Assembly: GCA_964477935.1 (NCBI GenBank)
Contig: CAYZFX010000007.1
Span: forward strand, 21,553-85,552
Direction of reading: 5' to 3'
From: an uncultured Syntrophorhabdus sp.
Lineage (GTDB): Bacteria; Desulfobacterota; BSN033; UBA1163
Length of the DNA: 64,000 nt
Positions 14,538 through 62,193 of this stretch are shown in pieces. Under the pieces are notes generated by a model. That model was not told the DNA's origin, did no database searches, and worked only from the letters and a program-made list of their open reading frames with translations. Position 1 is the first letter of the stretch, and every line of letters begins with the position of its first letter. Position numbers and translations under genes: made by a program.

Positions 14538-14626
14538 AAGAACCTCCTCTGGTATAATGATCCATCGATAAAAGGAAAAGGTTGAAGGGATTTCTTAAAA
14601 ACGATGAAGAAATGCCCTTGGACCGA

Positions 14627-15814: not shown

Positions 15815-15875
15815 AGAATCCTCCTCTCCCCACCCAACCCTTCCCTCAAGAGGAAAAGGGTAAGGTTGGCCTGGG

Positions 15876-27943: not shown

Positions 27944-28028
27944 GAGACCTTACGTTTAAATTTAGGGGGTTGGAGGTTAAACGCTCCTCTCGGGGATTGA
28001 GCGGTCACCTCCAACCTCAGATTTTCAA

Positions 28029-29123
28029 TTGAGTATTTTTCATCAATGGGAGTTTGCTATGGCCTACACCTTATGGTTTGACAAAGCAGGAAAAGAAGCC
28101 CTCGCCCTGGTCGGTGGAAAAAATGCCAGCCTGGGCGAGTTGATCAAGGCCGACATTCCAGTCCCCCCTGGATTTTCAGTGACCACAGAGGCGTATCTTG
28201 AATTTATCACCGGTAGCCTTAAGGAAGAGATCAGGCGGGTCCTCTCCCGTATCGACCTTCAGGATGTGGCCTCACTGGAAGGGGCCAGCCAGACCATCCG
28301 GGAACTCATCTCTCAAACCCCTTTCCCTCAAAAGATGGCCGACGAGATCGCCTCTAACTACGAAGCCCTCTCAAACGTCTTCGGCACGCCCGAGCTTCCT
28401 GTGGCTGTCCGGTCGAGTGCGACCGCCGAGGATCTTCCGGGAGCAAGCTTTGCTGGTCAGCAGGACACCTTCCTCTGGGTGCGCGGAATCGAAGAGGTTC
28501 TGAAAAAGATCAAACAATGTATGTCGAGCCTCTTCACACCGAGGGCCATCTCCTACAGGGTGAAGATGGGGTTTCCTCACGAGAAGGTATTGATCAGTGT
28601 GGGGATCCAGAAGATGGTCGACGCCCGGGCGGCGGGTGTCATGTTTACCCTCAACCCCCTCAATGGCGATCCCTCGAAGGTCGTCATCGAAGGAAACTGG
28701 GGGCTGGGAGAGACGGTCGTCGCGGGAGTCTGCAACCCTGACAAATTTGTTGTGGATAAGGTGACTAAGGACCTCGTAAAGGAGATCTCATTAAAGGAGA
28801 CGGAGTGCGTCTTCGACCCTCGAAGCGGTGAGGTGATCCATAGAGACATCGCCCCTGACCTGAGAGAAGTCCCATGCCTCGATGACGAGGAGGTCCTCGA
28901 ACTGGCACGATACGCAATCAAGATAGAGGATTATTATGGATGCCCTCAGGATATCGAATGGGCCATCGACAGGCAGAATCCCTTCCCCTTCAATATCTAT
29001 ATGGTCCAGAGTCGTCCGGAGACGATCTGGAGTCAGAAGAAGAAAGAGCCCGTCCTCGGAAAGAAGAGTGCCTACGAACTCTTGATGGAAAAGGCCTTGT
29101 CCACGATTAAGATCAACATCTAA
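28029..29123 (+). CDS. PEP synthase/PPDK N-terminal ATP-binding domain protein; phenylphosphate synthase PpsB-like
   Basis: PPDK_N family signature LALVGGKNASLGELIKADIPVPPGFSVTTEAY. Likely start is MAYTLWF at 28059 with a GGGAG SD. About 40 kDa, like PpsB. Confidence 0.75.
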   Translation: MSIFHQWEFAMAYTLWFDKAGKEALALVGGKNASLGELIKADIPVPPGFSVTTEAYLEFITGSLKEEIRRVLSRIDLQDVASLEGASQTIRELISQTPFPQKMADEIASNYEALSNVFGTPELPVAVRSSATAEDLPGASFAGQQDTFLWVRGIEEVLKKIKQCMSSLFTPRAISYRVKMGFPHEKVLISVGIQKMVDARAAGVMFTLNPLNGDPSKVVIEGNWGLGETVVAGVCNPDKFVVDKVTKDLVKEISLKETECVFDPRSGEVIHRDIAPDLREVPCLDDEEVLELARYAIKIEDYYGCPQDIEWAIDRQNPFPFNIYMVQSRPETIWSQKKKEPVLGKKSAYELLMEKALSTIKINI

Positions 29124-29244: not shown

Positions 29245-30288
29245 GTGTTCCCAGTACTCAAGGAGGAAGGCCTTTTCATGGAAACCGGAAAGCTTCCTAT
29301 TGACCTTCTTGAAAAGGCGTTAAAAAGATATTCTCTTCTTGATCCTACCGTCGTTCTTGGCCCAAAAATCGGGGAGGATGCCGCTGTAATCGATCCCGGA
29401 AAAGAATCAAAGCATTATTGGGTGGTCACTTCGGATCCCATCACGTTCACGACAGAAGAGATCGGATATTACGGTGTCGTCGTCAATCTAAACGACCTCG
29501 CCACCCGGGGAGCCACTCCGAAATATTTTCTGGCCACCCTCCTCTTTCCGGAACAGGGCTCAACCCCGAAGACCGTTGAAAAGACGTTCCGTCAGATCCA
29601 TGAGGCCTGCCGACGCTTTGGCCTCTCTTTTATCGGAGGCCATACCGAGATCACCCCTGGCCTTGATAGGGTTATTCTCTCCGGTCACATGATCGGAACC
29701 GTCAAAAAAGGAGGTCTGGTCCAAACCAGCGGCGCAAGAGCAGGAGATCTCTTGCTCATGGCCAAAGGCGTCTGCATTGAGGGAACGTCGATCATTGCCA
29801 GAGAAAGGGAAAAAGCCTTGCTGAGCAGAGGATTTTCCCCTTCCTTCCTGAACAGGGCGAAAGATTTCATCTTCGACCCTGGAATCGATGTCCTTCAGGT
29901 AGCCCGAATCGCCTGCCGAACCGCCAACATCCATTCGATGCACGATCCTACTGAGGGAGGTCTCATCAACGGGGTCGTTGAGATGGCCATGGCCTCGGGA
30001 AGAGAGATCGAGGTCAATCTTGGAGAGGTTTTCGTATACGACGAAGCGAAACTCCTCTGTGCGGAGTTCGGGCTCGATCCTCTGAGGACGATCGCCTCGG
30101 GATCGCTCCTCTTGACGATCTCCCCGGCAGACCTCCCTGCCCTCCAAAAAGCCTTTCGAAGGGCTTCGATCCCCCTCCGTGTCATCGGAAGAGTGGGGCG
30201 AGCCCCAGGCCGGGCCTTCGCATGGGAGGGAAAAAGGAGGCGAATATTACACCCCGTATCCAGGGATGAAATTTTAAAAATATTCTGA
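29245..30288 (+). CDS. AIR-synthase-related protein (PurM superfamily; ThiL/HypE-like ATP-dependent kinase fold)
   Basis: IGEDAAVID and VVVNLNDLATRGATP motifs shared with ThiL/PurM. Likely start is METGKL at 29278 with an AAGGAGGA SD. Lacks the SelD N-terminal Sec/Cys-Lys motif. Confidence 0.7.
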   Translation: MFPVLKEEGLFMETGKLPIDLLEKALKRYSLLDPTVVLGPKIGEDAAVIDPGKESKHYWVVTSDPITFTTEEIGYYGVVVNLNDLATRGATPKYFLATLLFPEQGSTPKTVEKTFRQIHEACRRFGLSFIGGHTEITPGLDRVILSGHMIGTVKKGGLVQTSGARAGDLLLMAKGVCIEGTSIIAREREKALLSRGFSPSFLNRAKDFIFDPGIDVLQVARIACRTANIHSMHDPTEGGLINGVVEMAMASGREIEVNLGEVFVYDEAKLLCAEFGLDPLRTIASGSLLLTISPADLPALQKAFRRASIPLRVIGRVGRAPGRAFAWEGKRRRILHPVSRDEILKIF

Positions 30289-47123: not shown

Positions 47124-47148
47124 AAGAAAAAAAGGGCGTTCAGCCCTC
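47124..47148 (-). terminator. Rho-independent terminator after nuoN (GGGC-TGAAC-GCCC then UUUUUUU on the minus strand)
   Basis: GC hairpin followed by a 7-T run in minus-strand sense, about 50 nt past the nuoN stop. Confidence 0.6.
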
Positions 47149-47194
47149 TAAGGCGACGCTCCCTCTTCCCAAATTCCAAGAACTCCGATGCCTC

Positions 47195-48646
47195 TTACAT
47201 CAACCCTGCGATCGATTTCTGTGCGAATGAGAGGACATTGGCAGGAAAGATCCCCATGTAGAACGTCCCGATCAAGGCTAAAATCAGGGCGATCACCGGA
47301 GCCGGTGAAAACTGGAGACCGCTAATCTCCCGCTCCGGTTCCCTGAAATACATGAGCACCGTGACCCGGAGGTAGTAGTAGACGGAGATGGCGCTGTTGA
47401 GCACTCCGAGAATGGCCAGCCAGTAATACTTGGCCTCCACGGCTGCACTGAAGATATAGAATTTGGCCATGAATCCGCCCAGGGGAGGAATCCCTGCCAG
47501 GGAGAGGAGAAAGACGGTCATCGAGGCGGACAGGAGGGGATACTTGAAACCCACCCCAGCATAATCGGTGATCAGGGTGTTCTCCTCACCTTTCTTGCCG
47601 AGGAGGATGACGCAGGTGAAGGCGCCCAGATTCATAAAGGCATACGCCATGAGATAGAAGAGGATGGAGGAGGTCCCCAGTTTATTCCCGGCGACAAAGG
47701 CTACGAGGATATATCCTGCATGGGCAATGCTCGAGTAGGCCAGCATCCTTTTGATGTTGTTCTGGGAGATGGCGATGATGTTCCCCACCGTCATCGTCAA
47801 TACCGCAATGAGCCACATGATCGCAGTCCAGTCCGGTTGAAATGATGGAAGGGCGGTGAAGAAGACTCGGATCAGGGCTGAAAACCCGGCAGATTTGACG
47901 CCGGTGGCCATGAAGGCGGTCACCGACGTCGGCGCCCCCTCATAGACATCGGGCGTCCACATATGAAAGGGGACAGAAGCAATCTTGAAGCCGAAACCGA
48001 TGGTAAGAAAAGCAAGACTCATGAGGAGCATCGGATGATCGAGAAGTTTTTTCTCGGCAATGTAAGAGGCGATATCCTTGAGGTAAAGGGAGCCGGTGGC
48101 GCCATAGAGAAAAGCAATCCCGTAGAGCAAAAACCCTGTGGCAAATGCCCCAAGGAGGAAGTATTTGAAGGCCGACTCCACCGACTTCCGATTCTCTCTC
48201 ATCATTCCAGCCAGGATGTAGATGGAGAGGGACATCGTCTCCAGGCCGAGGAAGATGACGATCAAATGGGTTCCTGCGGCCATCAACATCATCCCGAGCG
48301 TAGCGAAGAGCAGGAGGCTGTAATATTCGCCGAACCCGATCCCCTCCCTCGTCACATAGCCCATCGAGATCAGGATGGTCAGAAACGCGATCAGGAGGAT
48401 CATGATCTTGAAGAAGAGGGCAAATCCATCGGAGGTGAACATCCCTTCAAACCCCATCTCTCCGGATCCCACAAGGGGAAGGGAATAGAAAAAGGCGAGG
48501 ACTACGCCGATCAGGCTGAGGATTCCGAGATATCCCTTCTTCTCCCCTCTGGGTCCAAAGACATCTACCAGAAGGACCAGAAATCCAAAGGCCGCGATGA
48601 TGATTTCCGGCGCTATGAGGTCAAGATCAATCTCTGGTAATTTCAT
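47195..48646 (-). CDS. nuoN: NADH-quinone oxidoreductase subunit N
   Basis: 483 aa antiporter-like subunit; NuoN-type N-terminus and TM profile. Confidence 0.9.
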   Translation of the reverse strand: MKLPEIDLDLIAPEIIIAAFGFLVLLVDVFGPRGEKKGYLGILSLIGVVLAFFYSLPLVGSGEMGFEGMFTSDGFALFFKIMILLIAFLTILISMGYVTREGIGFGEYYSLLLFATLGMMLMAAGTHLIVIFLGLETMSLSIYILAGMMRENRKSVESAFKYFLLGAFATGFLLYGIAFLYGATGSLYLKDIASYIAEKKLLDHPMLLMSLAFLTIGFGFKIASVPFHMWTPDVYEGAPTSVTAFMATGVKSAGFSALIRVFFTALPSFQPDWTAIMWLIAVLTMTVGNIIAISQNNIKRMLAYSSIAHAGYILVAFVAGNKLGTSSILFYLMAYAFMNLGAFTCVILLGKKGEENTLITDYAGVGFKYPLLSASMTVFLLSLAGIPPLGGFMAKFYIFSAAVEAKYYWLAILGVLNSAISVYYYLRVTVLMYFREPEREISGLQFSPAPVIALILALIGTFYMGIFPANVLSFAQKSIAGLM

Positions 48647-48769: not shown

Positions 48770-50314
48770 CTACTCTCTAACCTCTGCAACGACCTTTGGG
48801 GCAGGCGCTTCCACTTTCCTTTCGATCTTCGTCTTCACGTCATTCAGGAACTTCTCCACGCTCGCATCCATCTTGGTGAAGAAGAGCTTGGGATAGATCC
48901 CCATGAGAAAGATGAGGGCAATCATGGGAAGGAGCGTGATGACCTCCCGCCCATGGAGGTCTTTCAACTTTTCGTTTTCGGGATGGGTGATCCTGCCGAA
49001 CATCACCCGCTGAAACATCCAGAGCATATAGGCCGCACCCAGGATCACTCCTGAGGCCGCTAAAACACCATAGACCGTATTGGTCTGAAAGGCACCGAGG
49101 AGGATGAGAAACTCTCCCACAAACCCATTCGTCCCGGGCAGCCCGATGGACGAAAGGGTGACGATCATAAAACAGGCAGCCAAAACCGGCATCACCTTCG
49201 AAATCCCCCCAAAGTCCGCGATCATCCGGGTATGCCTTCGCTCATAGAGCATCCCGACGATCAGGAAGAGGGAACCGGTGCTGATCCCGTGATTGAGCAT
49301 CTGATAGATCGACCCCTGCACACCCTGGGGATTGAAGGCGAACATACCGAGCATCACGTAGCCCAGGTGGCTGACGCTCGAGAAGGCCACCAGCCTCTTG
49401 AGGTCGGGCTGCATCATCGAGACCAGCGCCCCGTAGATGATCCCGATGAGGGCCAGAACCGAGATCAGAGGCATCAGATCAAAGGCCGCATTCGGAAACA
49501 GGGGAATGGCAAACCGGATAAATCCATAGGTCCCCATCTTGAGGAGGACGCCCGCCAGAATGACGCTCCCCGCCGTTGGCGCTTCGGTGTGCGCATCGGG
49601 CAACCACGTATGGAAAGGAAACATCGGCACCTTGATGGCAAAAGCCAGGGCAAAGGCTCCAAAGAGCCAGTACTGGGTGGAGACGGGAAGGCCCAACTGG
49701 TAGAGTTCGAGCACATCGAAGGTCCCCTTGCCGGTGGCGCTCCCATGGAGAAAATAGAGGGCCAGAATGGCCACCAGCATCAGCACGCTTCCGGCCATGG
49801 TGAAGAGGAAGAATTTAACGGCCGCATAGATCCGCCTTGCCGGATTGCCCCAGACGCCGATCAGGAGATACATGGGAATGAGCATCGCCTCCCAGAAGAC
49901 ATAGAAGAGGATGAGGTCGAGGGCGACCAAGGCACCGACCATCCCCGTCTCGAGAATAAGAAAGGAGATCATATACTCCTTGACCCGAAAGGTGATGGCC
50001 GTCCAGGAGCAGAGAACGCAGAGGACCGTCAGGAAGGTCGTCAGAAGCACGAGGAGAAGGCTGATGCCATCGATCCCGACCTTATAACTGATGCCATAGG
50101 CCTCCACCCACCACCAATCCTCCACGAACTGCATGGCCCCCGTGGTGGAATCGAATTTAAAGAAGAGAGGAAGGGAGGCCAGAAATTCGATCAGGGTAAT
50201 AATCAGGGTCGTCCCCCGGAGGGTTTCCTCCTTCTTCCAAAAGAGGAGCAGGATGGCCCCTCCAAGGGGAAAGAAAATCAGAAAGGATAGAATGGGGATA
50301 CCCAAGATGTCCAT
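48770..50314 (-). CDS. nuoM: NADH-quinone oxidoreductase subunit M
   Basis: 514 aa antiporter-like subunit. Confidence 0.9.
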
Positions 50315-50358: not shown

Positions 50359-52335
50359 TCATTTAAAGAAAATCCCTCGCAAGATGTAGTATCCTGCCAG
50401 GATCCCTCCGCCGACGACCATCGAAAAGGCATAGTGCTGAACCAAACCGGTCTGTACCCGTCTCATCACGCTGGAGATCCAGCCGATGAGGTAGGCCAGA
50501 CCGTTGACCGTCCCATCAATGATGAAATCATCAACCCCTTTCCAGAGTCCCCGCCCTAAGCCCTTGACGGAGTTGACAAAGAGGATCTGGTAGAGCTCAT
50601 CGACATAATATTTATTCGAGACCAATCTATACAGGCCTTTCCACCTCTCGGTCAGGACCTTCGGAAGGTGAGGGTGTTTCAGATAGAGAAAGTAGGCGAT
50701 CCCGATCCCGGTGAAGGCGATCGCAACGGAGAGGGCCATGAGGAAGATCTCGAGCGCGGCGGAATGGCCCCCTGCTCCTCCTGCGGCCCAGGCCTGGGAG
50801 ATGAGGGGGAATCCAGCAAGGGCTTTTGCGGGTTCAGCACCTCCCCCCACCACAGGCGCCAGGAATTCGTGGATATGGTTGGCCCCTCCTAAGACATGCG
50901 GCACTCCCACATATCCTCCCACGATCGAGAGCAGGGCGAGGAGGATCAGGGGAACGGTCATGATCTTTGGAGATTCGTGAATGTGATGTTCGAGGTGAGG
51001 ATCCACCCTCGAGGCACCGAAGAAGGTCATGAAAAGGGCCCTGAACATATAGAAGGCAGTCATCCCTGCCGCCACGGCCGCCACCAGCCAGAGCAGGAAG
51101 TGGCCCCGTTCACTGGAGAAGGCCATCCAGAGGATCTCGTCCTTGCTGAAGAATCCCGAAAGGCCGGGGACGCCCGAAATCGCCAGCGTGGCGATGAAGA
51201 ACGTCCAGAAGGTGACGGGAATCTTCCTCCTCAACCCGCCCATCCTCCGGATATCGAGCTCACCGCTTAGGGCATGCATCACACTCCCCGCACCGAGGAA
51301 GAGGAGTCCTTTGAAGAAGGCATGGGTCATCAGATGAAAGATTCCCGCGGCATAGGCCCCCACGCCCACCGCGACGAACATATATCCGAGCTGGCTGATC
51401 GTCGAATAGGCCAGGATCTTCTTCAGGTCGTACTGACAGAAGCCGATCGAGGCCGTGAAGATGGCCGTGGCCACGCCCACCGTTGCCACAACCGCCATCG
51501 CCACAGGGGCCAGGTTGTAAATCACGCTGCACCGGGCCACCATATAGACGCCCGCCGTAACCATCGTGGCGGCATGGATCAGGGAGCTGACCGGAGTGGG
51601 GCCCTCCATCGCATCGGGAAGCCAGACGTAGAGGGGGATCTGGGCGGACTTTCCACAGGCGCCGAGGAAGAGGAGGAGGGCGATCGCGGTGGCGGTCGCC
51701 GGATCGAGGTTGTTTGCCTTGGCGAAGGCCTCGGTAAAATCGAGCGTCCCCAGGTGGACGAAGATCAGAAACATGCCCAAGATAAAACCAAAGTCCCCCA
51801 CGCGATTGACGACGAAGGCCTTCTTTCCCGCATTGGCCGCCGAATCCCTCTCATACCAGAAGCCGATCAGCAGATAGGAGCAGAGGCCGACCCCTTCCCA
51901 TCCCACGAACATGAGAAGGAAGTTGTTGGCCAGGACGAGATTGAGCATCATGAAGACGAAGAGGTTGAGATAGGTGAAGTAGCGGGCATATCCCGGATCG
52001 TCATGCATGTATCCCACGGAGTAGATATGGATGAGAAAGCTCACGCCGGTCACGATCAGGGCCATGAGGATGGAGAGGGGATCGATCTGGTAGCCGATCA
52101 CCGTCTGAAACGGTCCCGAGACGACCCAATCGAAGATCACCTTCTCGAACAGTCGTTCTGCCGGAGGCCGTTGGATCAGTTCGAAAAAGATGAGGAGGGA
52201 GACGAGGAAGGAAAGGCCGACCGCCGAAGGCCCCACCCAGCTGACCGTGCCCTTTCCAAGCCCCTTCCCCAGGAGGCCGTTGATCAGAAATCCAACAAAC
52301 GGGAAGAGAGGGATGAGCCACACATAGTCAAGCAT
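50359..52335 (-). CDS. nuoL: NADH-quinone oxidoreductase subunit L
   Basis: 658 aa antiporter-like subunit with a C-terminal long-helix extension. Confidence 0.9.
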   Translation of the reverse strand: MLDYVWLIPLFPFVGFLINGLLGKGLGKGTVSWVGPSAVGLSFLVSLLIFFELIQRPPAERLFEKVIFDWVVSGPFQTVIGYQIDPLSILMALIVTGVSFLIHIYSVGYMHDDPGYARYFTYLNLFVFMMLNLVLANNFLLMFVGWEGVGLCSYLLIGFWYERDSAANAGKKAFVVNRVGDFGFILGMFLIFVHLGTLDFTEAFAKANNLDPATATAIALLLFLGACGKSAQIPLYVWLPDAMEGPTPVSSLIHAATMVTAGVYMVARCSVIYNLAPVAMAVVATVGVATAIFTASIGFCQYDLKKILAYSTISQLGYMFVAVGVGAYAAGIFHLMTHAFFKGLLFLGAGSVMHALSGELDIRRMGGLRRKIPVTFWTFFIATLAISGVPGLSGFFSKDEILWMAFSSERGHFLLWLVAAVAAGMTAFYMFRALFMTFFGASRVDPHLEHHIHESPKIMTVPLILLALLSIVGGYVGVPHVLGGANHIHEFLAPVVGGGAEPAKALAGFPLISQAWAAGGAGGHSAALEIFLMALSVAIAFTGIGIAYFLYLKHPHLPKVLTERWKGLYRLVSNKYYVDELYQILFVNSVKGLGRGLWKGVDDFIIDGTVNGLAYLIGWISSVMRRVQTGLVQHYAFSMVVGGGILAGYYILRGIFFK

Positions 52336-52427: not shown

Positions 52428-52745
52428 TCACCACTTCAAGAGATTCACCTCGTCGACGTTGATCGTCCCTTTGGAACGATAGAGCATAACGAAGATGGCC
52501 AGTCCCACCGCTGCCTCGGCCGCAGCCACCGCCATCACGAAGAAGGCGAAGATCACGCCGTCCACAGATTGAAGAAAACGGGAAAAGGTGACGAAGGTCA
52601 GATTGACCGCATTGAGCATCAGCTCGATAGAGATGAAGACGATGATGGCGTTCCGTCGGGTCAGCGCACCGATCACGCCGAGGGTGAAGAGCACGCCGCT
52701 CAGGACGAGGTAGAGGGCAGGCGGGATGCTGGGGATAGGCCACAT
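52428..52745 (-). CDS. nuoK: NADH-quinone oxidoreductase subunit K
   Basis: 105 aa with three TM helices and the conserved Glu in TM2. Confidence 0.9.
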
Positions 52746-52757
52746 GGTCGGTTCTCC

Positions 52758-53285
52758 TTATCTCCTTTGCTTGCTCAAGACGACCGCTCCGATCATGGCC
52801 GCCACGAGGAGGACGGAAACGATCTCGAAGGGGAAGAGGTAGGTGGTAAAGATCGCCTCTCCCACGGCCTCCACATTCGATCCCATCTTCTCCAATGAAT
52901 AGGTGCCCGTCTGGCCGCTGGGAGACCGAGCGAGGACCGTAACCACAATCCCGATGAGAAAGAGCAGGGCGAAGAGTCCTCCGAAGACCTTGGGATAGGT
53001 GATCTTGAGCCTCGAACGGAGTTCGGTCTCCAGGTCCAGGAGCATGATGACGAAGACGATGAGCATCACGATGGCTCCCGCATAGACGATGACCTGGATG
53101 ATGGCGATGAAAGGGCTGTGGAGGAGGAGGTAGAGGACGGCCACGCAGAGGAGGGTCAGAGCCATGAAGAGGGCGCTGTGAATCGGGTTTTTCCGTGTGA
53201 TGACCATCAGGGAGGCGAAGATCGAGATCCCTGCCATCCCTAAAAAGATCAACCATTGAAAGAGGACTCCGAGATGTTCCGGCAT
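52758..53285 (-). CDS. nuoJ: NADH-quinone oxidoreductase subunit J
   Basis: 175 aa NuoJ-like membrane subunit. Confidence 0.85.
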   Translation of the reverse strand: MPEHLGVLFQWLIFLGMAGISIFASLMVITRKNPIHSALFMALTLLCVAVLYLLLHSPFIAIIQVIVYAGAIVMLIVFVIMLLDLETELRSRLKITYPKVFGGLFALLFLIGIVVTVLARSPSGQTGTYSLEKMGSNVEAVGEAIFTTYLFPFEIVSVLLVAAMIGAVVLSKQRR

Positions 53286-53366: not shown

Positions 53367-53393
53367 GTTTCGAATTTCGAAATGCGTGCCTCG
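53367..53393. repeat. Intergenic motif copy 2 (nuoI-nuoJ spacer): GTTTCGAATTTCGAAAT-GC-GTGCCTCG
   Basis: Shares a 15-nt core TTCGAATTTCGAAAT plus GTGCCTCG with the copy at 56862-56902. Both lie inside the nuo operon just upstream of a start codon. Confidence 0.4.
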
Positions 53394-53396
53394 ATT

Positions 53397-53825
53397 TTAG
53401 ATCGAGCTCGATGATGGATTCTTCTTCTTCTCTTCCAAAAGCTTCTCCGTGTTCAACAAAAAGGGGGCCCTCGATGGCTCCACCCATTCGTAATTCTTGC
53501 CGAGAAAGAGGGCATTGACCGGACAGGCCTCCTCACAGTAACCGCAGTAGATACATCGCAGGGCATCCAGCTCGTAGGTGAGGGGATAACGCCTTCCGTC
53601 CTGGCCCTCGGCGGTCACGATCGAGATGCACTGGGAGGGGCAGATGGCCATGCAGAGACCGCAGGCCACACATTTCAGCCTCCCATTTTCATCCTTCTCA
53701 AAATAATGAATGCCCCTCCACCGTTTCGCCGGGGGCACTTTCTCTTCCGGATACTGAAGGGTGATCGGTCTGGAGAAGAACTGCCTCAGGGTGAAAGCCA
53801 AACCTTTAAGTAGTGGGATGATCAT
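53397..53825 (-). CDS. nuoI: NADH-quinone oxidoreductase subunit I (2x[4Fe-4S] ferredoxin)
   Basis: Two CxxCxxCxxxCP motifs (CVACGLCMAICP, CIYCGYCEEACP). Confidence 0.9.
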   Translation of the reverse strand: MIIPLLKGLAFTLRQFFSRPITLQYPEEKVPPAKRWRGIHYFEKDENGRLKCVACGLCMAICPSQCISIVTAEGQDGRRYPLTYELDALRCIYCGYCEEACPVNALFLGKNYEWVEPSRAPFLLNTEKLLEEKKKNPSSSSI

Positions 53826-53841: not shown

Positions 53842-54861
53842 TCATCCTTTCAAAGAAACGACCAGCGCCGTGATCAAGAGATTGGCAAGGGCCAGCGGAA
53901 AGAGGACCTTCCATCCAAATTTCATGATCTGGTCGTAACGGAGCCTCGGGAATGTCCCTCTCTGCCAGATGAAGAAGAAGAGGAAGACAAAGAGCTTCGT
54001 GCAGAACCAGACAATTCCCGGGATGAAATCGAGCTGGGGCAGTGGCGCCTGCCACCCTCCCCAGAAGAGGGTGACCGCCAGGCTGCCCATCGCGATCATA
54101 TGGGCGTACTCGGCCATGAAGAAGAGCGCAAATTTCATGCTGCTATATTCGATGTTAAATCCGCAGGCCAGCTCCGATTCGGACTCCGGCATATCGAAGG
54201 GGGTGCGGTTGATCTCCGCCAGGCCGCAGACGAGATAGAGGAGGAAGGCGAGGGGCTGATACCAGACATTCCAGTTCCAGAACCCTCCGGCTTGGTGGTG
54301 GACGATCTCCGTTAGCCTCAAACTTCCGGAGAGGAGGATTACGCCGACGACCGAAAGGCCGAGGGCCACCTCGTAGCTGATCATTTGAGCTGCGGCCCGG
54401 AGCGAACCGGTCAGCCCGTACTTGTTCCCTGAGGACCAGCCCCCGAGGACGATCCCGAACTCTCCCAGGGAGGCCACACCGAAGAGGTAGAGGAGGGCGA
54501 TGTCGATGTCTGCAATCCTCAATTGGACAACCCAGTCCGTCCAGGGTACCCTGAACTCATTCCCGAAAGGGATGACCGCAAAGAGGGCGATCGCCGAAAC
54601 GATCGAGATCATGGGCGCCAGCACAAAGACGGGTTTATCCGCGCCTGCGGGGATGAGATCCTCTTTGAAAAAGGCCTTGATGCCATCCGAAATGGGCTGG
54701 AGGAGTCCGAAGGGGCCACAGCGGTTCGGACCGTAACGGACCTGGATGTGGCCCAGAACCTTCCGCTCCAGCCAGGTGAGATAGGCCACCGAGAGCATCA
54801 GGCAGGCGAAGACCACGACACATTTCACAATCGTCTCAATGAGAAAATAGAGCACCTCCAT
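53842..54861 (-). CDS. nuoH: NADH-quinone oxidoreductase subunit H
   Basis: 339 aa, NuoH/ND1-like. Confidence 0.9.
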   Translation of the reverse strand: MEVLYFLIETIVKCVVVFACLMLSVAYLTWLERKVLGHIQVRYGPNRCGPFGLLQPISDGIKAFFKEDLIPAGADKPVFVLAPMISIVSAIALFAVIPFGNEFRVPWTDWVVQLRIADIDIALLYLFGVASLGEFGIVLGGWSSGNKYGLTGSLRAAAQMISYEVALGLSVVGVILLSGSLRLTEIVHHQAGGFWNWNVWYQPLAFLLYLVCGLAEINRTPFDMPESESELACGFNIEYSSMKFALFFMAEYAHMIAMGSLAVTLFWGGWQAPLPQLDFIPGIVWFCTKLFVFLFFFIWQRGTFPRLRYDQIMKFGWKVLFPLALANLLITALVVSLKG

Positions 54862-54886: not shown

Positions 54887-56839
54887 TCACACCGCGAACA
54901 ATCCGATTCGCACGCATCGGAGGCAGCGTTCGGCCTCCCTCCGGGCGACCGGGATGGAGAACCCCTTCTCCACCTCATCGAAGGACCATTTTCTCGTCTC
55001 AGGGGGGAGCTTCTCGGGCATGGCCCGCCTCTGCCGGCCCGGATGTTCGATCCCTTCCTCCGGGTTGTACACCTTGATTTTTTCGAGAAGGGCCTCCAGA
55101 CGCTCGGCCTTCGGTTCCTTCAACTCCCTTCCCTGAAGGTAGGCATCGATTCGATCAGCCGCTTTTCTTCCATGGCCTGCGGCCCGGACAAGGACATCTG
55201 GACCGACCACACAATCTCCCCCTGCGAAGACCCCTGGCCGGCTCGTCTGGAAGGTACCTTCGTCGATCGCAAGGGTGGACCGTTTCGTCGTCTTCACCCC
55301 ATCCTTCTCATCGAGAAAGGAGAGGTCGATCGTCTGACCGATCGCGGGAATCACGATATCGGCTTCGAGGAAAAATTCCGAACCCTTGATGGGTATAGGT
55401 CTTCGCCTGCCGCTCTCATCCGGTTCGCCCAACTCCATACGGATGCACTCCATGCCGATGACCCTGCCCTCCTTGGCCACGATCCGGACCGGATTGCAGA
55501 GGTAATGAAACTTCACCCCTTCCTCTTCGGCCTCGTGGATCTCCACCCGGTCCGCGGGCATCTCCCTCTTCGTCCGCCGGTAGACGAGATGGACGTCCGA
55601 TTTTCCGATCCGGAAGGAAGAGCGAACACAATCGATCGCCACATTGCCTCCGCCGACCACGACGACCCGCTTCCCTTCCGGGTAGGGATCTCTTCCCAGG
55701 TTGATCTCCTGAAGGTAATAGACCCCGGGGATGAACCCCTTATATCCCCTGTCCTCTCCTTCCACGCCCATGGGTATGTTGGTCTGTGCGCCGACCGCTA
55801 TATAGATGGCCTGGTATCCCTGGTCAAAGATCTGGGAGATCGTGATCTCCTTTCCCACCTGGACCGGATACTGGAACTCCACCCCCAACCGTTCGAGCAG
55901 ACCGGTCTCATAGAGGACGATCTCCCTCGGAAGCCTGTAGTCCGGAATTCCAAACGTGGCCATGCCCCCTAACTCTCCCATGCGCTCGAAGACCGTCACC
56001 CGATAGCCCTTGAGGGCAAGATAGTAGGCACAGCTCAAGCCCGAAGGCCCGGCCCCGATAATAGCCACCTTCTGGGGCCGGAGAGGGGCCTGGATCATCT
56101 CTGGTTTCATCCCCTTTTCCCGCTCGTAATCGGCCACAAATCGTTTGAGCCATTTGATCGAAAGGCACTCATCGACGTTCTGGCGTCGACAATGGTCTTC
56201 ACAGGGCCGGATGCAGACCCTCCCCAGAATCCCCGCCAAACAGGTCGCCTCCCGGATGGCGGTGAGCGATTCTCTGAACCGGCCCTCTTTGATCAATTCG
56301 ATATACCTGGTGATGGGAAGGCGGGCAGGACAGGCGGTCTCGCACGGAGCGGTCGCCTTCACCTGATAAGTCTGTCTGGGAATCCTCCTCCTCGACCGGA
56401 TCACCTCGGAAAAATGGTCCTGAAAGTGATTGAGTCCGTCGAGCAGGGGCTTGGGTCCGGTTTGTCCCAGGTTACATTTTGAACTCTGGATGATCATCTC
56501 CGCCAGTGGTCTCATCCGATCGAGGTCTTCCGGCCTTCCCTCGCCCTCGGCGATGCGGTTCATCATCGTCAGGAGGATGCGCGTGCCTACCCGGCAGGGG
56601 TTGCACTTCCCACAGGATTCCTTCTGAACCGCCTCGATGTAAGCCCGGAGGAGATCAATGGGATCGACATCCCGGTCCCGGATCACGATTCCGTCCCAGC
56701 CGATAAAGGCCTTGATCGGCCTTCCCCGATCATAGTCAACCGGAAGGGTGAGATTCGGGATGGGCACCCATTCCGAATCCGGTTTTCCCCGGTTATCCAC
56801 AACCACACCGCCCCAACTGCTGAACAGGATGCCGGTCAT
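54887..56839 (-). CDS. Fusion protein: NuoF C-terminal SLBB/[4Fe-4S] module joined to a GltD-like FeS/FAD/NAD(P)H oxidoreductase
   Basis: N-terminal ESCGKCNPCRVG...KCNLGQTGP matches the NuoF 51-kDa C-terminal FeS region. Then CETACPA...CIRPCEDHC (GltD N-terminal clusters) and two Rossmann motifs VAIIGAGPSGLSCA and VVVVGGGNVAIDC. Located exactly where nuoEFG would be. Confidence 0.8.
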   Translation of the reverse strand: MTGILFSSWGGVVVDNRGKPDSEWVPIPNLTLPVDYDRGRPIKAFIGWDGIVIRDRDVDPIDLLRAYIEAVQKESCGKCNPCRVGTRILLTMMNRIAEGEGRPEDLDRMRPLAEMIIQSSKCNLGQTGPKPLLDGLNHFQDHFSEVIRSRRRIPRQTYQVKATAPCETACPARLPITRYIELIKEGRFRESLTAIREATCLAGILGRVCIRPCEDHCRRQNVDECLSIKWLKRFVADYEREKGMKPEMIQAPLRPQKVAIIGAGPSGLSCAYYLALKGYRVTVFERMGELGGMATFGIPDYRLPREIVLYETGLLERLGVEFQYPVQVGKEITISQIFDQGYQAIYIAVGAQTNIPMGVEGEDRGYKGFIPGVYYLQEINLGRDPYPEGKRVVVVGGGNVAIDCVRSSFRIGKSDVHLVYRRTKREMPADRVEIHEAEEEGVKFHYLCNPVRIVAKEGRVIGMECIRMELGEPDESGRRRPIPIKGSEFFLEADIVIPAIGQTIDLSFLDEKDGVKTTKRSTLAIDEGTFQTSRPGVFAGGDCVVGPDVLVRAAGHGRKAADRIDAYLQGRELKEPKAERLEALLEKIKVYNPEEGIEHPGRQRRAMPEKLPPETRKWSFDEVEKGFSIPVARREAERCLRCVRIGLFAV

Positions 56840-56861: not shown

Positions 56862-56902
56862 ATCCGAAGTTCGAATTTCGAAATCCCGATCTGGTGCCTC
56901 GG
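56862..56902. repeat. Intergenic motif copy 1 (nuoD to fusion-gene spacer): ATCCGAAG-TTCGAATTTCGAAAT-CCCGATCTG-GTGCCTCGGAT
   Basis: Same core as the copy at 53367-53393. Flanking ATCCGAAG / CCTCGGAT form an inverted repeat; in mRNA sense the hairpin is followed by GUUUUUCC. Confidence 0.4.
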
Positions 56903-56912
56903 ATCATCAATG

Positions 56913-58115
56913 TTACCGATCGATCTCTCCCAGGACGATGTCGATGCTTCCGATGGTAGCGATCACATCTGCGATCAGGCTCCCCTCGATCATCTTGGGA
57001 AGGGCGCTCAGGTTGAGGAAGGAGGGGGGACGAATCCTCACCCTCAAGGGTCGGTTCGATCCATCGCTCACCACATAAAAGCCCAGTTCCCCTTTGGCCG
57101 CTTCCACGCTTGCATAGGCCTCGCCTCTGGGGACGTTGAACCCTTCGGAGGCGATCTTGAACTGGTGGATCAGAGCGGCGATATCGGTGAGAACCTTCTC
57201 CTTGGGAGGCAGGACTACCCTCGGATCGTTTGCGAGGATGGGCCCCTTCGGCAGTCTTTCAAGGGCCTGTCTCACGATGGCATTCGACCACTCCATCTCT
57301 CTCAGCCGGACATAGTATCGATCATAGACGTCGCCTGCCGAACCGATGGGGATTTCAAACTCAAAGTCTTCATAGCTCGAATAGGGGAAGGCCTTCCGGA
57401 CATCCCATTTCACACCCGATCCCCGCAGGGTGGGGCCTGTGACCCCCCAGTTGATGGCATCCTCCTTGCTCAGGACACCCACGCCCCTGGTCCGTTTTAA
57501 CCAGATCACATTCTTGGTCAGGAGCGTCTCGTACTCCTTGATCCGTTTCGGAAAGCTCTCCACAAAGGCTTTGATCTTCGCCTCGATCCCATCGGGAAGG
57601 TCCTTGGCCACCCCGCCGATCCTCAGATAGGTGGGCGTCAATCTTCCACCCGCGACTTCTTCGAAGATTTTCAGGACCTCTTCCCTCTCCCTGAAATTGT
57701 AAAAGAGCAGGGTCATGGCACCGATGTCGAGGGCATGGGTGCCGAGCCAGATGAGGTGGGCCGCTATTCTCTGGAGCTCGGCCATCATTACCCTCAAATA
57801 CTTCGCCCTCTTCGGCACCTCGATGCCCAGCAGCTTCTCCACCGCCAAGACATAGGCCAGATTATTTCCCATGGCATTGGTATAATCGAGCCGGTCGGTC
57901 AGGGGGATGATCTGATGGTAGGTCCTTGCCTCAGCCAGCTTTTCAACCCCGCGGTGAAGGTGGCCGATATGGGGGGTGGCTTTGACGACCACCTCGCCAT
58001 CCAGTTCAAGCACGAGCCTCAGCACGCCATGGGTGGCTGGATGTTGAGGGCCCATATTGATGGTCATCAATCGTCGCTCTGCCATTTCAGACCTCGGGGA
58101 CAAAAGGTTTGCCAA
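56913..58115 (-). CDS. nuoD: NADH-quinone oxidoreductase subunit D
   Basis: 400 aa, MTINMGPQHPATHGVLRL 49-kDa signature. Confidence 0.95.
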   Translation of the reverse strand: MANLLSPRSEMAERRLMTINMGPQHPATHGVLRLVLELDGEVVVKATPHIGHLHRGVEKLAEARTYHQIIPLTDRLDYTNAMGNNLAYVLAVEKLLGIEVPKRAKYLRVMMAELQRIAAHLIWLGTHALDIGAMTLLFYNFREREEVLKIFEEVAGGRLTPTYLRIGGVAKDLPDGIEAKIKAFVESFPKRIKEYETLLTKNVIWLKRTRGVGVLSKEDAINWGVTGPTLRGSGVKWDVRKAFPYSSYEDFEFEIPIGSAGDVYDRYYVRLREMEWSNAIVRQALERLPKGPILANDPRVVLPPKEKVLTDIAALIHQFKIASEGFNVPRGEAYASVEAAKGELGFYVVSDGSNRPLRVRIRPPSFLNLSALPKMIEGSLIADVIATIGSIDIVLGEIDR

Positions 58116-58578
58116 AGTCCGGTCCTAAGAGCGGAAAGTCCTTTCTTAAAGGGTGGCCTTCGTACCCCTCCCAGAGGAGGATCCTCCTCAGATCCGGATG
58201 GTTTTCGAAGGAGATGCCGAAAAGGTCATAAACTTCCCTTTCGAGCCAGTTGGCCGCCTTCCAGATCGATTCGACACTGGTCACCGATTCCCCCTCTCCA
58301 ACCTTCGTCTTCACTCTTAACCGATCGTTATTCCTGAAGGAGTGGAGAAAATAGACGATCTCGAATCTCGGAACGGAGGGAAAGTAATCGACCCCGCAGA
58401 GGTCGACGAGCATGTCGTACTGGAGCTCGGGGTCGGAATAGAGAAACCGGCATATCTCGAAGAGGTCGTCCTTCGGCACGGTGACGCTTACCTCTCCCCG
58501 AAAGCTCGCCTCTTCGATGGCTGAAGTGGAAAATCTGGCCCGCAGTTTTCGGACAGCAGGGTGGCTCTCGCCCATCAC
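58087..58578 (-). CDS. nuoC: NADH-quinone oxidoreductase subunit C
   Basis: 163 aa 30-kDa subunit (EREVYDLFGI). Separate from nuoD, not fused. Confidence 0.9.
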   Translation of the reverse strand: MMGESHPAVRKLRARFSTSAIEEASFRGEVSVTVPKDDLFEICRFLYSDPELQYDMLVDLCGVDYFPSVPRFEIVYFLHSFRNNDRLRVKTKVGEGESVTSVESIWKAANWLEREVYDLFGISFENHPDLRRILLWEGYEGHPLRKDFPLLGPDFGKPFVPEV

Positions 58579-58597: not shown

Positions 58598-59107
58598 TTA
58601 ACCTTTCATTTCAAGGGTGCTCTTTACGTCCTTCCGTGCAGCCAGGGTCTCCTTCTCGATCTTCTTCTGAAGCTCGATGATCGCCGTCAGGAGCGACTCC
58701 GGTCTTGGAGGACAACCTGGGACATAGAGATCGACCGGAATCATCTGGTCAACGCCCTGAACTACATTATAGGTCTTAAAAATTCCTCCCGAGCAGGCAC
58801 AGGCCCCGTAGGCGATCACCCACTTCGGCTCAGGCATCTGTTCGTAGATCCGTTTGACCATCGGGGCCATCTTCTTCGTCAGGGTCCCGGCCACGATCAT
58901 CAGGTCTGCCTGCCGGGGCGAAGGTCTGAAGACCTCCGAACCGAACCTCGAGATATCCCAGGTTCCGGAACTGGTGACCATCATCTCGAGGGCGCAACAG
59001 GCAAGGCCGAAGGTGACCGGCCAGATCGAATACTTCCTTCCCCAGTTGACCACTTTATCGAGGCTGGAGAGGTAGGGGGTCTTTTCCAGATAGGTTTCTA
59101 TTCCCAT
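58598..59107 (-). CDS. nuoB: NADH-quinone oxidoreductase subunit B
   Basis: CCALEMM ... GACACSGG N2-cluster motifs. The true start MGIETYL (ATG at 59107-59105) overlaps the nuoA stop. The ORF track extends it artificially to 59326. Confidence 0.9.
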
Positions 59108-59454
59108 TCGAGGGCTCCTTTTTTCCAGAGGTAGACATAGGCGATGATCAGGATCCCAAGGAAGACCGCCATGGAGACGAACCCAAATACCTTCAACTCC
59201 CGGAAGACGACGGCCCAGGGGTAGAGGAAGGCGATTTCGATGTCGAAGAGGAGGAAGAGCATGGCGATGATGTAGTACTTGACCGGGATCCTCCGAAAAG
59301 GGGAACCGTAGGTCGGCATCCCACATTCATAGGGAGCCTCCTTGATGGCGGTGGGCTTCCTCTGCCCGAGAAGATGGGAGGCGAGGACCGCAAAACAGGC
59401 AAAGAGGATCGCAATTCCCAAAAAGATGAGAATGGGAAGATAATCGATCAACAT
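59098..59454 (-). CDS. nuoA: NADH-quinone oxidoreductase subunit A
   Basis: 118 aa, three TM helices, NuoA-like. SD AGGAGG 6 nt upstream. Confidence 0.9.
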
Positions 59455-59520: not shown

Positions 59521-62193
59521 TCAAGGATTGACCCGTTCGATTCGGACCGTGGAGTATTTTAAATCCGGGATCTTCGATTCTGGATCGAGCACGGTATTGG
59601 TCAGGCGATTGACCGGGGCCTCCGCAAAATGGAATTTGGCAAAGGCCACTCCCTTGGCCACCCTCTCCGTGATCTTCACCCTCGAGGTGAATTCCCCTCT
59701 CCGGCTCACCACTCTGACCTGATCCTCTTCCCTGATCCCGAGCCTTTCTGCATCTTGAGGATGGATCTCCACTAAACTCTCCGGGCACATCTCGTTAAGG
59801 AGTCTCACCTTCCGGGTCATACTTCCCGCGTGATAATGGTAATAATCCCTTCCCGTACTCAGAATGAATGGAAATTCCTGATCCGGGACTTCGGGGGGAG
59901 GACTATAGTCCACGGGCACGAATAATCCCTTCCCCCTTGCGATCTTGCCCCTATGGAGGATCGGCGTTCCCGGATGGCTCACATCCGGGCAGGGCCACTG
60001 AATCCCCTTGGACTCCAGGCGGGCATAGGTGATCCCTGCATACTGGGGGGTCACCTGGCGAATCTCTTCGAAGATGTCCTCAGGCCCTCGATAAGACATC
60101 GGATATCCGAACCGGGTGGAGATCTCCGAAATGATCTCCCAATCGGCCTTAGCCCCTTCCGGACCTTCGAGCGCCTTTCTCACCCGCTGAACCCTCCTCT
60201 CGGTGTTGACGAATGTCCCGTCCTTCTCGAGGAAGCTCAGGGTGGGAAAGACGACATGGGCCTGCTGGGCCGACTCCGTGAGAAAGAGGTCCTGAACCAC
60301 GAGGAGGTCCAATTTGGCATAAGCCTTCTGGAGATGGGATAGATCGGGGTCGGTCACCATGGGATTCTCCCCCATGATGTAAATCGCTTTAACCTCTCCC
60401 CTGTAGGCGGCCTCTCCAATCTCAACGACCGTAAGACCAGGTTTCTCTGAGAGGGATGTGTTCCAGAAATATTCAAACTTCTCCCTGTTCTCCCTGATCG
60501 CCACGGCCTGATACCCAGGATAGACATTCGGCAGACAACCCATGTCGCAGGCCCCCTGCACATTATTCTGCCCTCTCAAGGGGTTGACCCCGCTTCCGGG
60601 TTTTCCGAGCTGACCGCAGAGGAGGGCCAGATTGGAGATCGCCTTCACTCCGTCCGTACCCTTTGAGTGCTGGGTGATTCCCATGCAGTAGAGGATGGCC
60701 GCATTCTTTGCCGTGGCATACATCCGCGCTGCCTTGATGAGCTGGTCTTTCGGAATTCCGGTCAGCTCTTCCACATATTCAGGCGTGTATTGTGCAACCT
60801 TCTCCTTAAAGGCCTCGAACCCCTCTGTATGAGCTTCGATGAATCCCTTATTATAGAGATTCTCTTTGAGGATGATGTGTGCCAAACCGTTTAACCAGGC
60901 AATATCATCCCCGGGTTTGGGCTGGAGGAAGAGGTCGGCCTCCTCGGTGAGATCGATCCGTCTCGGATCGACAACGATGATCTTGGCCCCGTGGAATCGA
61001 GAGCGGTTCCTAAGGACCATTCCGATGACTGGATGGGTTTCGGTCGTATTGCTTCCGGTCACGAGAAAGAGATCTGCCTCTTTGAAATCGGCGATGGAGT
61101 TGGTCATCGCGCCGGAGCCTAAGGTCGTGGCCAGACCGACCACGGTGCTGGAGTGTCAGAGACGGGCACAGTGGTCCACATTGTTCGTCCCGATGGCAGC
61201 CCTGAGAAACTTCTGGAAGAGGTAGTTTTCTTCACAGGTGACCCGGGCAGAGGCGAGTCCGGCGATGCTGTTCGGGCCATAGGTCGCCTTGATCTCTCTC
61301 AGCCTCGTGGCTACGAACGTCAGGGCTTCCTCCCAGCTGGCTTCTCTCAACCGGCCATTTTCACGGATGAGTGGGGTTTTGAGCCTTTCAGGGCTGTGGA
61401 CGAATTCGAAGCCGAACCTCCCTTTGACACAGAGAACCCCGTGATTCGTGCCAAGCCCCTCACGGGTGGTTACCTTAATCACCCTGTTTTGGACCACGTT
61501 CACCTCGAGAGAACAGCCCACGCCGCAGTATCCACAGATCGTCGTCACCCTCTCCGCCTGCCATTTCCTTCCCTTGATTGGACTGACGTTCTCTGTCAGT
61601 GCGCCCACTGGGCAGGCGGCCAGACACTCCCCGCAGGAGATGCACCTTTCTGGCCGCACGGGCTCCACGCGGGCGTCGAAGCCAGTGCCGTGGAGATCGA
61701 GGACCTCCCGGCCGACGACCTCCCGGCAGGTTCGGATGCACCGGCTGCAGAGGATACAGCGGTTCGGGTGGTATCGGATGGCTGGAGTGGAATAGGTTCG
61801 GACTTCTTTCGCCGGCGCCTCCACCCGGTAGACCGTCTCGGTGATCCCATATTCGTAAACATAATCCTGGAGGTCACATTCCCCTCCCTTATCACAGACC
61901 GGACAATCAAGGGGGTGATTCACCAGCAGGAACTGAAGGACCTCTTTTCGGATCTCGCGGACCTTGTCGGTCTCTGTCTCCACGACCATCCCGTCCACAG
62001 CCACCGTGTTGCAGGCGGTCACAGGGTTTTTAAGTCCCTCGATCTCGACCACACACATCCTGCACATGCCAGTGGGTAGGAGACTCTCCATGTAGCAAAG
62101 CGTCGGGATACGGATACCATCCTTCTTGGCCATTTGAAGAATGGTCAGGCCCTCTTCTCCTTCGATGAGTCTGCCATTGATCGTGATCTTCAT
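59521..62193 (-). CDS. fdhA: Selenocysteine-containing molybdopterin formate dehydrogenase alpha subunit, NuoG-like N-terminus (FdsA/FdhA type); one gene spanning two track ORFs via an in-frame UGA at 61156-61158
   Basis: N-terminal 2Fe-2S, His-ligated HPLDCPVCDKGGEC and two ferredoxin-type 4Fe-4S motifs. Then the MopB domain, where NVDHCARL-[TGA][20 protein letters not shown] aligns with E. coli FdhF NVDCCARV-U-HGPSVAGL. Downstream MopB motifs include GVNPLRGQNNVQGACDMG. Confidence 0.8.
61120..61146 (-). promoter_or_regulatory. Candidate bacterial SECIS hairpin (7-bp stem CGUGGUC/GGCCACG, apical loop GGUCU) beginning 12 nt 3' of the UGA codon
   Basis: Seen in sequence in minus-strand sense. 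The position and G/U-containing apical loop are consistent with SelB-binding SECIS elements. Confidence 0.45.

Follow-up and report, generated by a model that had tools for sequence, protein, structure and literature searches.

Complex I cores without the NuoEFG subunits are common in anaerobes, and the electron donor that serves them is mostly unknown. This question is raised by an operon in a 64,000-nucleotide (nt) stretch of DNA from an uncultured Syntrophorhabdus sp. (GenBank assembly GCA_964477935.1, contig CAYZFX010000007.1, positions 21,553 to 85,552 of the forward strand), hereafter the window, to whose first letter all coordinates refer. Entirely on the minus strand, the operon has the order fdhA-nuoABCD-target-nuoHIJKLMN, in which target denotes the gene at 54887..56839 that is the subject of this study, situated 25 nt ahead of nuoH in the slot between nuoD and nuoH. 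Its 650-residue product is an iron-sulphur (FeS) flavoprotein of the FdhB/SfrB type that binds NADP(H) (nicotinamide adenine dinucleotide phosphate), and its predicted alpha partner, encoded in the same operon though not adjacently, since nuoABCD lies between, is a selenocysteine (Sec)-containing formate dehydrogenase, FdhA. We consider it probable, at roughly 0.6, that the target and FdhA constitute a module of the FdhAB/SfrAB type which replaces NuoEFG as the input/output module of a canonical 11-subunit complex I. The location of the target in the nuoEFG slot is one argument for this replacement. The protein alone is ordinary; it is the operon that deserves attention.

The target open reading frame (ORF) begins with an ATG, 7 nt downstream of a GAGGGG ribosome-binding site, and the start MT(D/G)ILFSSWGG is common to every homolog. 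Pfam and NCBIfam searches of the translation identified a NuoF/HydB C-terminal domain for an N3-type [4Fe-4S] cluster (residues 62-144; 56408..56656; NADH_4Fe-4S PF10589, E = 1.1e-25), a GltD-type FeS domain (residues 163-243; 56111..56353; Fer4_20, E = 3e-20) and the Rossmann folds for flavin adenine dinucleotide (FAD) and NADPH (residues 257-557; 55169..56071; Pyr_redox_2, E = 5e-33), all on the minus strand. These are followed by a C-terminal extension (residues 570-650; 54887..55132, minus strand), which aligns with the linker region of NfnA and StnC through an invariant C639-x2-C642 near its end. An earlier note on this DNA, made without database searches, had described a fusion of a NuoF C-terminal FeS module with a GltD-like module bearing two cysteine clusters and two Rossmann motifs, and had seen no domain for flavin mononucleotide (FMN) and NADH. 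This composition is borne out, and so is the absence: neither Complex1_51K (FMN/NADH) nor SLBB gave a Pfam match at E<=0.01, and the NCBIfam nuoF model was matched only over its positions 293-409 of 410 (residues 30-146 of the target; 66 bits, cut-off 559). The N-terminus had been assigned to the SLBB/4Fe-4S end of NuoF, of which the [4Fe-4S] end stands but the SLBB part does not, and the NuoF-like alignment, which at residues 17-156 extends beyond the Pfam limits, proved nearer to HydB/StnB than to NuoF. All GltD-family NCBIfam models scored below their cut-offs (TIGR01317, 207 against 448; TIGR01318, 336 against 483) and the scanned ORFs of the window included no gltB-like gene; on these scores and gene content, the target appears not to be a GltD in the strict sense.

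The Fer4_20 region holds C166, C170, C209, C213 and C217 together with K232, and the Rossmann motifs are GAGPSG (residues 262-267; the GxGxxG of FAD) and GGGNVA (residues 396-401; GxGxxA), with YRR at residues 420-422. A GxGxxA sequence in the second motif has been interpreted as NADP(H)-type (PMC7483475, Stn paper). The N3-type cysteines C76, C79, C82 and C122 were invariant across 35 nuo-linked and 23 soluble homologs, as were C166, C170, C209, C213, C217, C465, C639 and C642 and the motifs for FAD (GxGxxG) and NADPH (GxGxxA) along with YRR. K232 was invariant in 24 homologs, and C639 and C642 are kept even in distant relatives; in our view, this C-terminal CxxC probably supplies the cluster ligands wanting in the shortened N-terminal motif. 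Further cysteines, namely C270, C448, C543 and, inside the GltD-type FeS domain, C200 and C225, are invariant or nearly so in the 35 nuo-linked homologs, whilst the 23 soluble ones usually have Pro, Ala or Thr at the same positions.

Comparison with solved structures places the two halves of the protein among different enzymes. Residues 17-156 matched C-terminal HydB/StnB/NuoF-type chains in the PDB (E = 1e-27 to 1e-12), with the soluble HydB/StnB type at 1e-27 and NuoF of complex I at about 1e-14, which suggests that this module was imported together with a soluble enzyme and is not the remnant of a resident NuoF. Residues 145-647 found their best matches in NfnA (9n5u, E = 7e-116), a StnC homolog (9bov) and StnC (8oh5), down to 3e-98, with NfnB, GltD and DPD ranking next (range to E = 2e-45). 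K232 of the target aligns with K170 of StnC, the lysine ligand of a FAD-proximal cluster in an enzyme whose FAD was shown to be non-bifurcating, and the corresponding residue of the bifurcating NfnL is Glu (PMC10482914). In StnC, electrons pass from NADPH to FAD, then over two [4Fe-4S] clusters to a chain of clusters resembling that of NuoG, hence StnC and NfnA offer a solved precedent for a GltD module feeding a NuoG-like chain, which argues for the replacement proposed here. By analogy, the suggestion in the earlier note that the target is an entry point for NAD(P)H into the FeS chain gains a precedent for its GltD part.

StnC (of StnABC) and NfnA (of NfnABC) share with the target both the lysine of the FAD-proximal cluster and the C-terminal CxxC. 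They differ in that their GltD module is inserted in a NuoG-like polypeptide and works alongside full NuoE/NuoF-like bifurcating subunits, whereas that of the target is fused to a NuoF-like C-terminal domain only and has membrane Nuo subunits as its neighbours. The NuoE-like and full-length, FMN-binding NuoF-like subunits that characterize StnABC, NfnABC and HydABC of the Bfu type are encoded neither in the operon nor in the scanned ORFs of the window. These differences bear on flavin-based electron bifurcation, in which the GltD-type FAD would divide the electrons of NADPH between quinone, via Nuo, and CO2 or ferredoxin. Bifurcation by GltD-type modules is known from NfnAB, and this operon offers three redox partners, yet the Glu of NfnL is replaced here by K232, as in StnC, and the operon contains neither an NfnA/PyrK-like subunit nor a module of NuoE and full-length NuoF with FMN. 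Owing to this lysine and the lack of a bifurcating partner, bifurcation is the least likely of the alternatives considered, and we regard it as very improbable.

The beta subunits of NADP-dependent formate dehydrogenase and SfrB, from the NADPH oxidoreductase SfrAB of Geobacter, share with the target the NuoF C-terminal [4Fe-4S] domain, the GltD-type FeS domain, the FAD and NADPH folds and a length of about 650 residues, and the alpha subunits of these enzymes are, like FdhA of the window, of the FdhA/SfrA type with a NuoG-like N-terminus. The target is unlike them in being embedded between nuoD and nuoH, with its alpha partner beyond nuoABCD. The assignment to the FdhB/SfrB-type class was made by architecture and by the names of homologs at JGI; Moorella FdhB and Geobacter SfrB we take to have the same architecture.

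The presence of a suitable partner is a further argument for the replacement of NuoEFG. The gene fdhA (59521..62193, minus strand) appears as two in-frame ORFs, 62193-61156 (345 residues) and 61143-59521 (540 residues), split by a TGA codon (61156..61158, minus strand), and this Sec-containing partner at the operon head was overlooked in the earlier note, whose account was to that extent incomplete. Read through the TGA, which lies in the sequence HCARL-TGA-HSSTVVGL, the gene encodes an 890-residue formate dehydrogenase alpha subunit that scores 871 bits on the Fdh-alpha model TIGR01591 (cut-off 666). Its conservation was followed in a survey in which the Nuo and FdhA proteins of the window were mapped onto 80 loci from species-representative genomes (designated by the prefix L); the closest relative, L081, was fetched apart from this survey. 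The TGA is in frame in eight loci with the operon layout of the window (L001, L005-L009, L021 and L035) and also in the soluble fdhA of L043, L051 and L052, whilst L059 has Cys at this position; in L081 the ortholog is annotated as a single product of 890 residues. The assignment of Sec is based on the conservation of this TGA in frame, on the motif around it and on the L081 product. When the RNA downstream of the TGA was folded, it proved no more stable than shuffled sequences (z = 0.92), and no selenocysteine insertion sequence is claimed from it.

The first 215 residues of FdhA (61549..62193, minus strand) form a NuoG-like FeS domain (Fer2_4, NADH-G_4Fe-4S_3 and Fer4_Nqo3) with a single [2Fe-2S] cluster and three [4Fe-4S] clusters, one of which is His-ligated. 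The ligands of these clusters and of the [4Fe-4S] cluster in the molybdopterin domain are invariant in the partners of both nuo-linked layouts described below and in the soluble partners. FdhA also carries the motif LRGQNNVQG, which we take to hold the catalytic Arg, and the absence of a signal resembling that for twin-arginine translocation indicates a cytoplasmic enzyme.

The module shares with NuoEFG its slot in the operon and its general scheme, in which a hydride-accepting flavin is followed by an N3-type cluster and a NuoG-type chain, and the N3 domain of the target and the NuoG-like N-domain of FdhA are homologous to their counterparts in NuoF and NuoG. It differs in having the FAD/NADPH folds of GltD in exchange for the FMN/NADH fold, in lacking NuoE, and in the place of NuoG, which is taken by an intact Sec-FdhA in the window and by decayed FdhA proteins in a group of relatives. 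In complex I and in NAD-linked formate dehydrogenases, the N3 domain of NuoF and FdsB is the part that touches the N-domain of NuoG and FdsA, so the retention of this domain alone can be understood as providing an adaptor by which the GltD module docks. The operon and the other scanned ORFs of the window contained neither nuoE, nor a full-length nuoF, nor nuoG.

The Nuo core that this module would serve was examined gene by gene, all on the minus strand. Upstream of the target lie nuoA (59098..59454; placed by gene order, with PF00507 in the L081 ortholog), nuoB (58598..59107; Oxidored_q6; 169 residues from the ATG at 59107, a start that agrees with L081), nuoC (58087..58578; Complex1_30kDa, E = 5e-47) and nuoD (56913..58085; 390 residues from the ATG at 58085; Complex1_49kDa, E = 3e-120). 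The longest ORF of nuoB, 58598-59326 (242 residues), overlaps nuoA, and the start of nuoD is most likely 58085, rather than the TTG at 58115. Downstream follow nuoH (53842..54861; NADHdh, E = 1e-124) and nuoI (53397..53825; two [4Fe-4S] clusters, by ORF and homology), then, placed by gene order, nuoJ (52758-53285), nuoK (52428-52745), nuoL (50359-52335), nuoM (48770-50314) and nuoN (47195-48646). The flanking genes named in the earlier note, nuoD and nuoH, are confirmed by the E values given here. NuoB has the tandem-Cys motif of cluster N2, and in NuoD both residues of the quinone site, His (PATHG) and Tyr (RLDY), are present and the cysteine motifs of NiFe enzymes are absent; judged by these residues, the core appears complete and of the quinone-reducing type.

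Both NuoI and NuoD are far nearer to NuoEFG-bearing complex I than to the ferredoxin-dependent NDH-1 of cyanobacteria, NuoI scoring 126 bits to the former against 65 to cyanobacterial NdhI. In a separate comparison, NuoD scored 444 bits to complex I against 130 to HycE. A core of the NuoG-docking type supports the replacement, and it bears on the possibility of a coupling that is functional and not physical, in which an SfrAB-like NADPH(/formate):ferredoxin oxidoreductase would reduce a soluble ferredoxin that then feeds the Nuo11 core. Nuo11 complexes without NuoEFG are indeed widely assumed to take other donors (PMC5736913, PMC11238625), and soluble pairs with non-catalytic SfrA-like partners occur among the loci surveyed (L039-L060). 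Against such a coupling, the operon contains no ferredoxin gene, NuoI is much nearer to NuoG-docking complex I than to the ferredoxin-binding NdhI, and a Lys-ligated proximal cluster like that of StnC suggests downhill transfer along a chain, not the generation of low-potential electrons. We consider this coupling quite unlikely, though less so than bifurcation.

Database searches with the target returned approximately 8000 proteins at E<=1e-10, and the best 120 of these (73-85% identity, nearly all of exactly 650 residues) came from metagenome-assembled genomes (MAGs) of Desulfobacterota and from metagenomes, in which the family is abundant. Relatives often bear the label Syntrophaceae, Syntrophales or Syntrophorhabdus, and many homologs bear the JGI name 'formate dehydrogenase (NADP+) beta subunit'. 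When residues 1-160 were compared with representatives at 50% identity, the domain was N-terminal in proteins of about 650 residues from many clusters, and otherwise stood in the C-terminal part of HydB/NuoF-like proteins of about 600-780 residues; more distant relatives of the target are missing the NuoF-like N-terminus and have other modules fused. The fusion of a NuoF C-terminal domain with a GltD module is a widespread, established architecture, and its description as unusual in the earlier note does not hold.

The survey divided as follows: 36 of the 80 loci have a nuo-linked homolog, 25 have one whose next gene downstream is fdhA/sfrA-like and whose vicinity is free of nuo genes, and the remaining 19 showed neither neighbour or lay on a short contig (in L038, for instance, it is a lone gene amid housekeeping genes). 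A neighbour-joining tree built for the target family put every nuo-linked copy in one clade (at least 56% identity, 36 loci) whose members are always inside nuo, and the sister group is non-nuo (L043, which has a Sec-fdhBA pair, and L036-L038). The earlier note had treated occurrence away from nuo genes as a ground for doubt, and on this point the outcome is split, the wider family being mostly of the soluble type and outside nuo, and the clade of the target always within it. Conservation of the slot across so deep a clade argues for replacement of NuoEFG. The trees are distance trees without support values and are to be read as provisional.

Two layouts occur within the clade. The window, L081 and eight surveyed loci (L001, L005-L009, L021 and L035), hence nine genomes besides the window, share the type 1 layout, fdhA(Sec)-nuoABCD-target-nuoH-N, with synteny reaching a divergent OYE gene upstream and FKBP, S1 and ECH genes downstream. 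A type 2 layout, nuoABCD-target-[FdhA-like]-nuoH-N, was found in 22 loci, comprising 17 close relatives among L011-L029 together with L030-L034 (56-60% identity), and in the target tree type 2 forms the deep branches whilst type 1 is nested higher. The inner FdhA-like gene of type 2 follows the target directly (11982-14666 in L011, 6548-8959 in L033 and equivalents in L012-L034), and its product has NGARLSSGSS in place of the type 1 sequence HCARL-U-HSS, a change that removes both Sec and the His beside it. On the Fdh-alpha model this product scores 659 bits in close relatives but 207 in deep ones, in which NuoG is the best-scoring model; as judged from these motifs and scores, the type 2 series leads by gradual decay from a formate dehydrogenase to a subunit resembling NuoG. 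The pairing of the target with an FdhA-like gene in type 2 mirrors nuoEF followed by nuoG, which again favours replacement.

Several type 2 loci also harbour a short Sec-FdhA without a NuoG-like N-terminus, behind HdrA-like and FrhB-like genes and immediately upstream of nuoA (L011, 491-6969; also L012, L019, L023, L025 and L028), which constitutes a second, different formate dehydrogenase system beside the nuo operon. An origin of the type 1 FdhA as a recent fusion of the type 2 inner N-domain with this upstream short Sec-FdhA was considered and is opposed by identities and trees: type 1 FdhA is about 50% identical to each of these, and the B subunit (the target and its homologs, as opposed to the FdhA-like A subunit) 74%. 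The N-domains of the A subunits of type 1, type 2 and L043 form one group in the tree. Two labels among the nuo-linked loci call for comment. L033, titled as a Syntrophus aciditrophicus MAG, has a full type 2 nuo operon, and the type strain of this species has been reported without membrane Nuo subunits (PMC8805022), so the MAG is probably from another organism and its label too narrow. L004 is a 3.8-kb contig binned as Gallionellaceae, yet its matches to target, nuoH and nuoI equal in identities and spacing those of the Syntrophorhabdus-labelled L003, and its assignment is probably a binning error.

The distribution of these genes also bears on the possibility of a soluble enzyme, in which FdhA and the target would form a free cytoplasmic heterodimer, an NADP-dependent formate dehydrogenase (formate + NADP+ <-> CO2 + NADPH) sharing no more than a transcript with a Nuo core that uses another donor such as ferredoxin. 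The same two-subunit architecture occurs without nuo in the 25 loci mentioned above, and includes Sec-FdhA pairs in Desulfacinum infernum (L051) and in a Syntrophales MAG (L043); the JGI name of the homologs points the same way, as does the lack of nuo-specific insertions or deletions in A or B. A soluble heterodimer would, however, leave unexplained why the nuoEFG slot is kept constantly across a clade extending down to 56% identity, and why a non-catalytic, NuoG-like A subunit occupies the slot in type 2. It would also not account for the parting of A and B in type 1, where nuoABCD separates them, as A stands directly after B in all 25 of the non-nuo pairs; this split, set against such strict adjacency, fits a single assembly. 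We hold the soluble enzyme to be unlikely, though it is the strongest of the alternatives.

Several observations nonetheless weigh against the replacement of NuoEFG by the target and FdhA. Membership of an operon can by itself reflect co-regulation, and the attachment of the module to Nuo is inferred. The search for nuoEFG was confined to the operon and the scanned ORFs of the window. No insertions or deletions separating nuo-linked from soluble subunits were found in either A or B, and nothing in the two sequences appears to mark a docking surface; soluble pairs of the FdhAB/SfrAB type do exist, including non-catalytic ones (L039-L060). The specificity of the target for NADPH is a prediction from motifs. 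An AlphaFold2 model of the target, computed from an alignment of 24 sequences of 73-85% identity, reached a predicted local distance difference test score of only 53 and a predicted template modelling score of 0.44, too poor for a fold search, hence the use of sequence matches to solved structures instead.

If the target and FdhA do replace NuoEFG, the module would be a reversible junction joining formate/CO2, NADP+/NADPH and quinone/quinol. NADPH would deliver a hydride to the FAD of the target, from which single electrons would pass via both [4Fe-4S] clusters of the GltD type, with a Lys ligand on the one nearer to FAD, as in the non-bifurcating StnC, to the N3-type [4Fe-4S] cluster. The NuoF-like N-domain of the target would act as an adaptor docking on the NuoG-like N-terminus of FdhA, where the path is predicted to branch. 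One branch would lead through the cluster of the molybdopterin domain to the site for formate and CO2, a Sec-ligated Mo (or W) bis-pyranopterin guanine dinucleotide, and the other through an N5-like cluster with a His ligand to NuoI and NuoB and on to quinone, with proton pumping by NuoLMN. In this scheme the docking on Nuo, the site of branching and the direction in which electrons move are all putative. Standard potentials of about -430 mV for CO2/formate, -320 mV for NADP+/NADPH and about -74 mV for menaquinone would let the enzyme run forward, pumping protons, or backward at the expense of the proton motive force (pmf). The fully specified form of this proposal is a single membrane complex with Sec-FdhA at the position of NuoG and the GltD-type NADPH flavoprotein at that of NuoEF, reversibly coupling the oxidation of both formate and NADPH to quinone reduction with proton pumping; we regard it as possible but tentative, at less than even odds.

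Exchange of the input module on a conserved core is known from other members of the complex I family. FpoF and FqoF deliver electrons from F420H2, Campylobacter has replacements of NuoE and NuoF that serve flavodoxin, and formate hydrogenlyase carries FdhF on a complex-I-like hydrogenase (PDB 7z0s) that reduces protons, not quinone. The module described here resembles all of these in being a peripheral and exchangeable input to a conserved core, and resembles formate hydrogenlyase further in that a formate dehydrogenase is joined to a membrane arm of the complex I type. The input proteins of these systems are, however, unrelated to the target module, and the NuoD of the window is of the quinone type and distant from HycE of formate hydrogenlyase. 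Searches of open-access papers and preprints brought up no account of an fdhB/sfrB-like gene placed between nuoD and nuoH, though an earlier description is possible; what appears to be new is the operon-level arrangement, as the protein family and each of the modules were already known.

Signals within the operon were also examined. The 15-nt motif ATTTCGAAATTCGAA, which is near-palindromic, occurs on the minus strand at 56870-56884 in the nuoD-target spacer and as an exact copy at 53369-53383 in the nuoI-nuoJ spacer, and nowhere else within the 64-kb window. Similar copies, often in both orientations, lie in the nuo spacers of relatives (L005, 9841-9867 and 16645-16765; L006, 12022-12131 and 16933; also L018, L020, L021 and L026). 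The motif could be the site of a regulator or a processing signal. Its conservation agrees with the earlier note, which had described a conserved intergenic hairpin, but the hairpin itself was not recovered: folding of the 79-nt nuoD-target spacer was at the level of shuffled sequences (z = 0.06), with no stable hairpin. A terminator-like hairpin with a 7-pair stem and a T-run directly after it follows nuoN (47131..47149, minus strand); it is the strongest noncoding site of this kind on the minus strand between fdhA and nuoN and likely marks the end of the operon. The nuoM-nuoN spacer has a weaker 5-pair stem (48668-48656) that no T-run accompanies, and the terminator scan gave no site between fdhA and nuoA.

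Elsewhere in the window, adjacent plus-strand genes at 26096-29123 encode a 615-residue protein with a PEP-utilizers mobile domain at its C-terminus and a 364-residue protein with a PPDK_N ATP-binding domain, and look like a phosphoenolpyruvate synthase/PPDK-like enzyme split in two genes of unusual order. The gene at 29245-30288 was considered as SelD and rejected on its NCBIfam score of 67 against a cut-off of 125. A beta-oxidation cluster (12756-19737, minus strand) encodes an acyl-CoA dehydrogenase of the FadE type (843 bits), a thiolase and a fused 3-hydroxyacyl-CoA dehydrogenase/enoyl-CoA hydratase, beyond which lie a gene of the metallo-beta-lactamase fold and then a TetR regulator. This cluster indicates a fatty-acid-oxidizing organism and makes the reverse direction of the module worth testing.

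The nuo-linked clade thus presents, in the exact slot of NuoEFG, a defined candidate for the input module of a NuoEFG-less core, whereby the question of its electron donor becomes testable. If attached, the module would make for a complex I that runs on NADPH and formate instead of NADH. The series of relatives from an active FdhA to a NuoG-like subunit is material on the evolutionary origin of NuoG, and if the single complex described above is real, the type 2 relatives would be a living replay of NuoG arising from a formate dehydrogenase. In that case the pmf would also drive the quinol-dependent reduction of CO2 to formate, and of NADP+, in fatty-acid-oxidizing, syntroph-like Desulfobacterota. 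Reverse electron transport in syntrophic fatty-acid oxidation, a problem of long standing, has so far been explained by redox loops involving periplasmic formate dehydrogenases (PMC8805022), and a reversible, pmf-powered link between quinone and formate/NADPH would bear directly on how it is accomplished.

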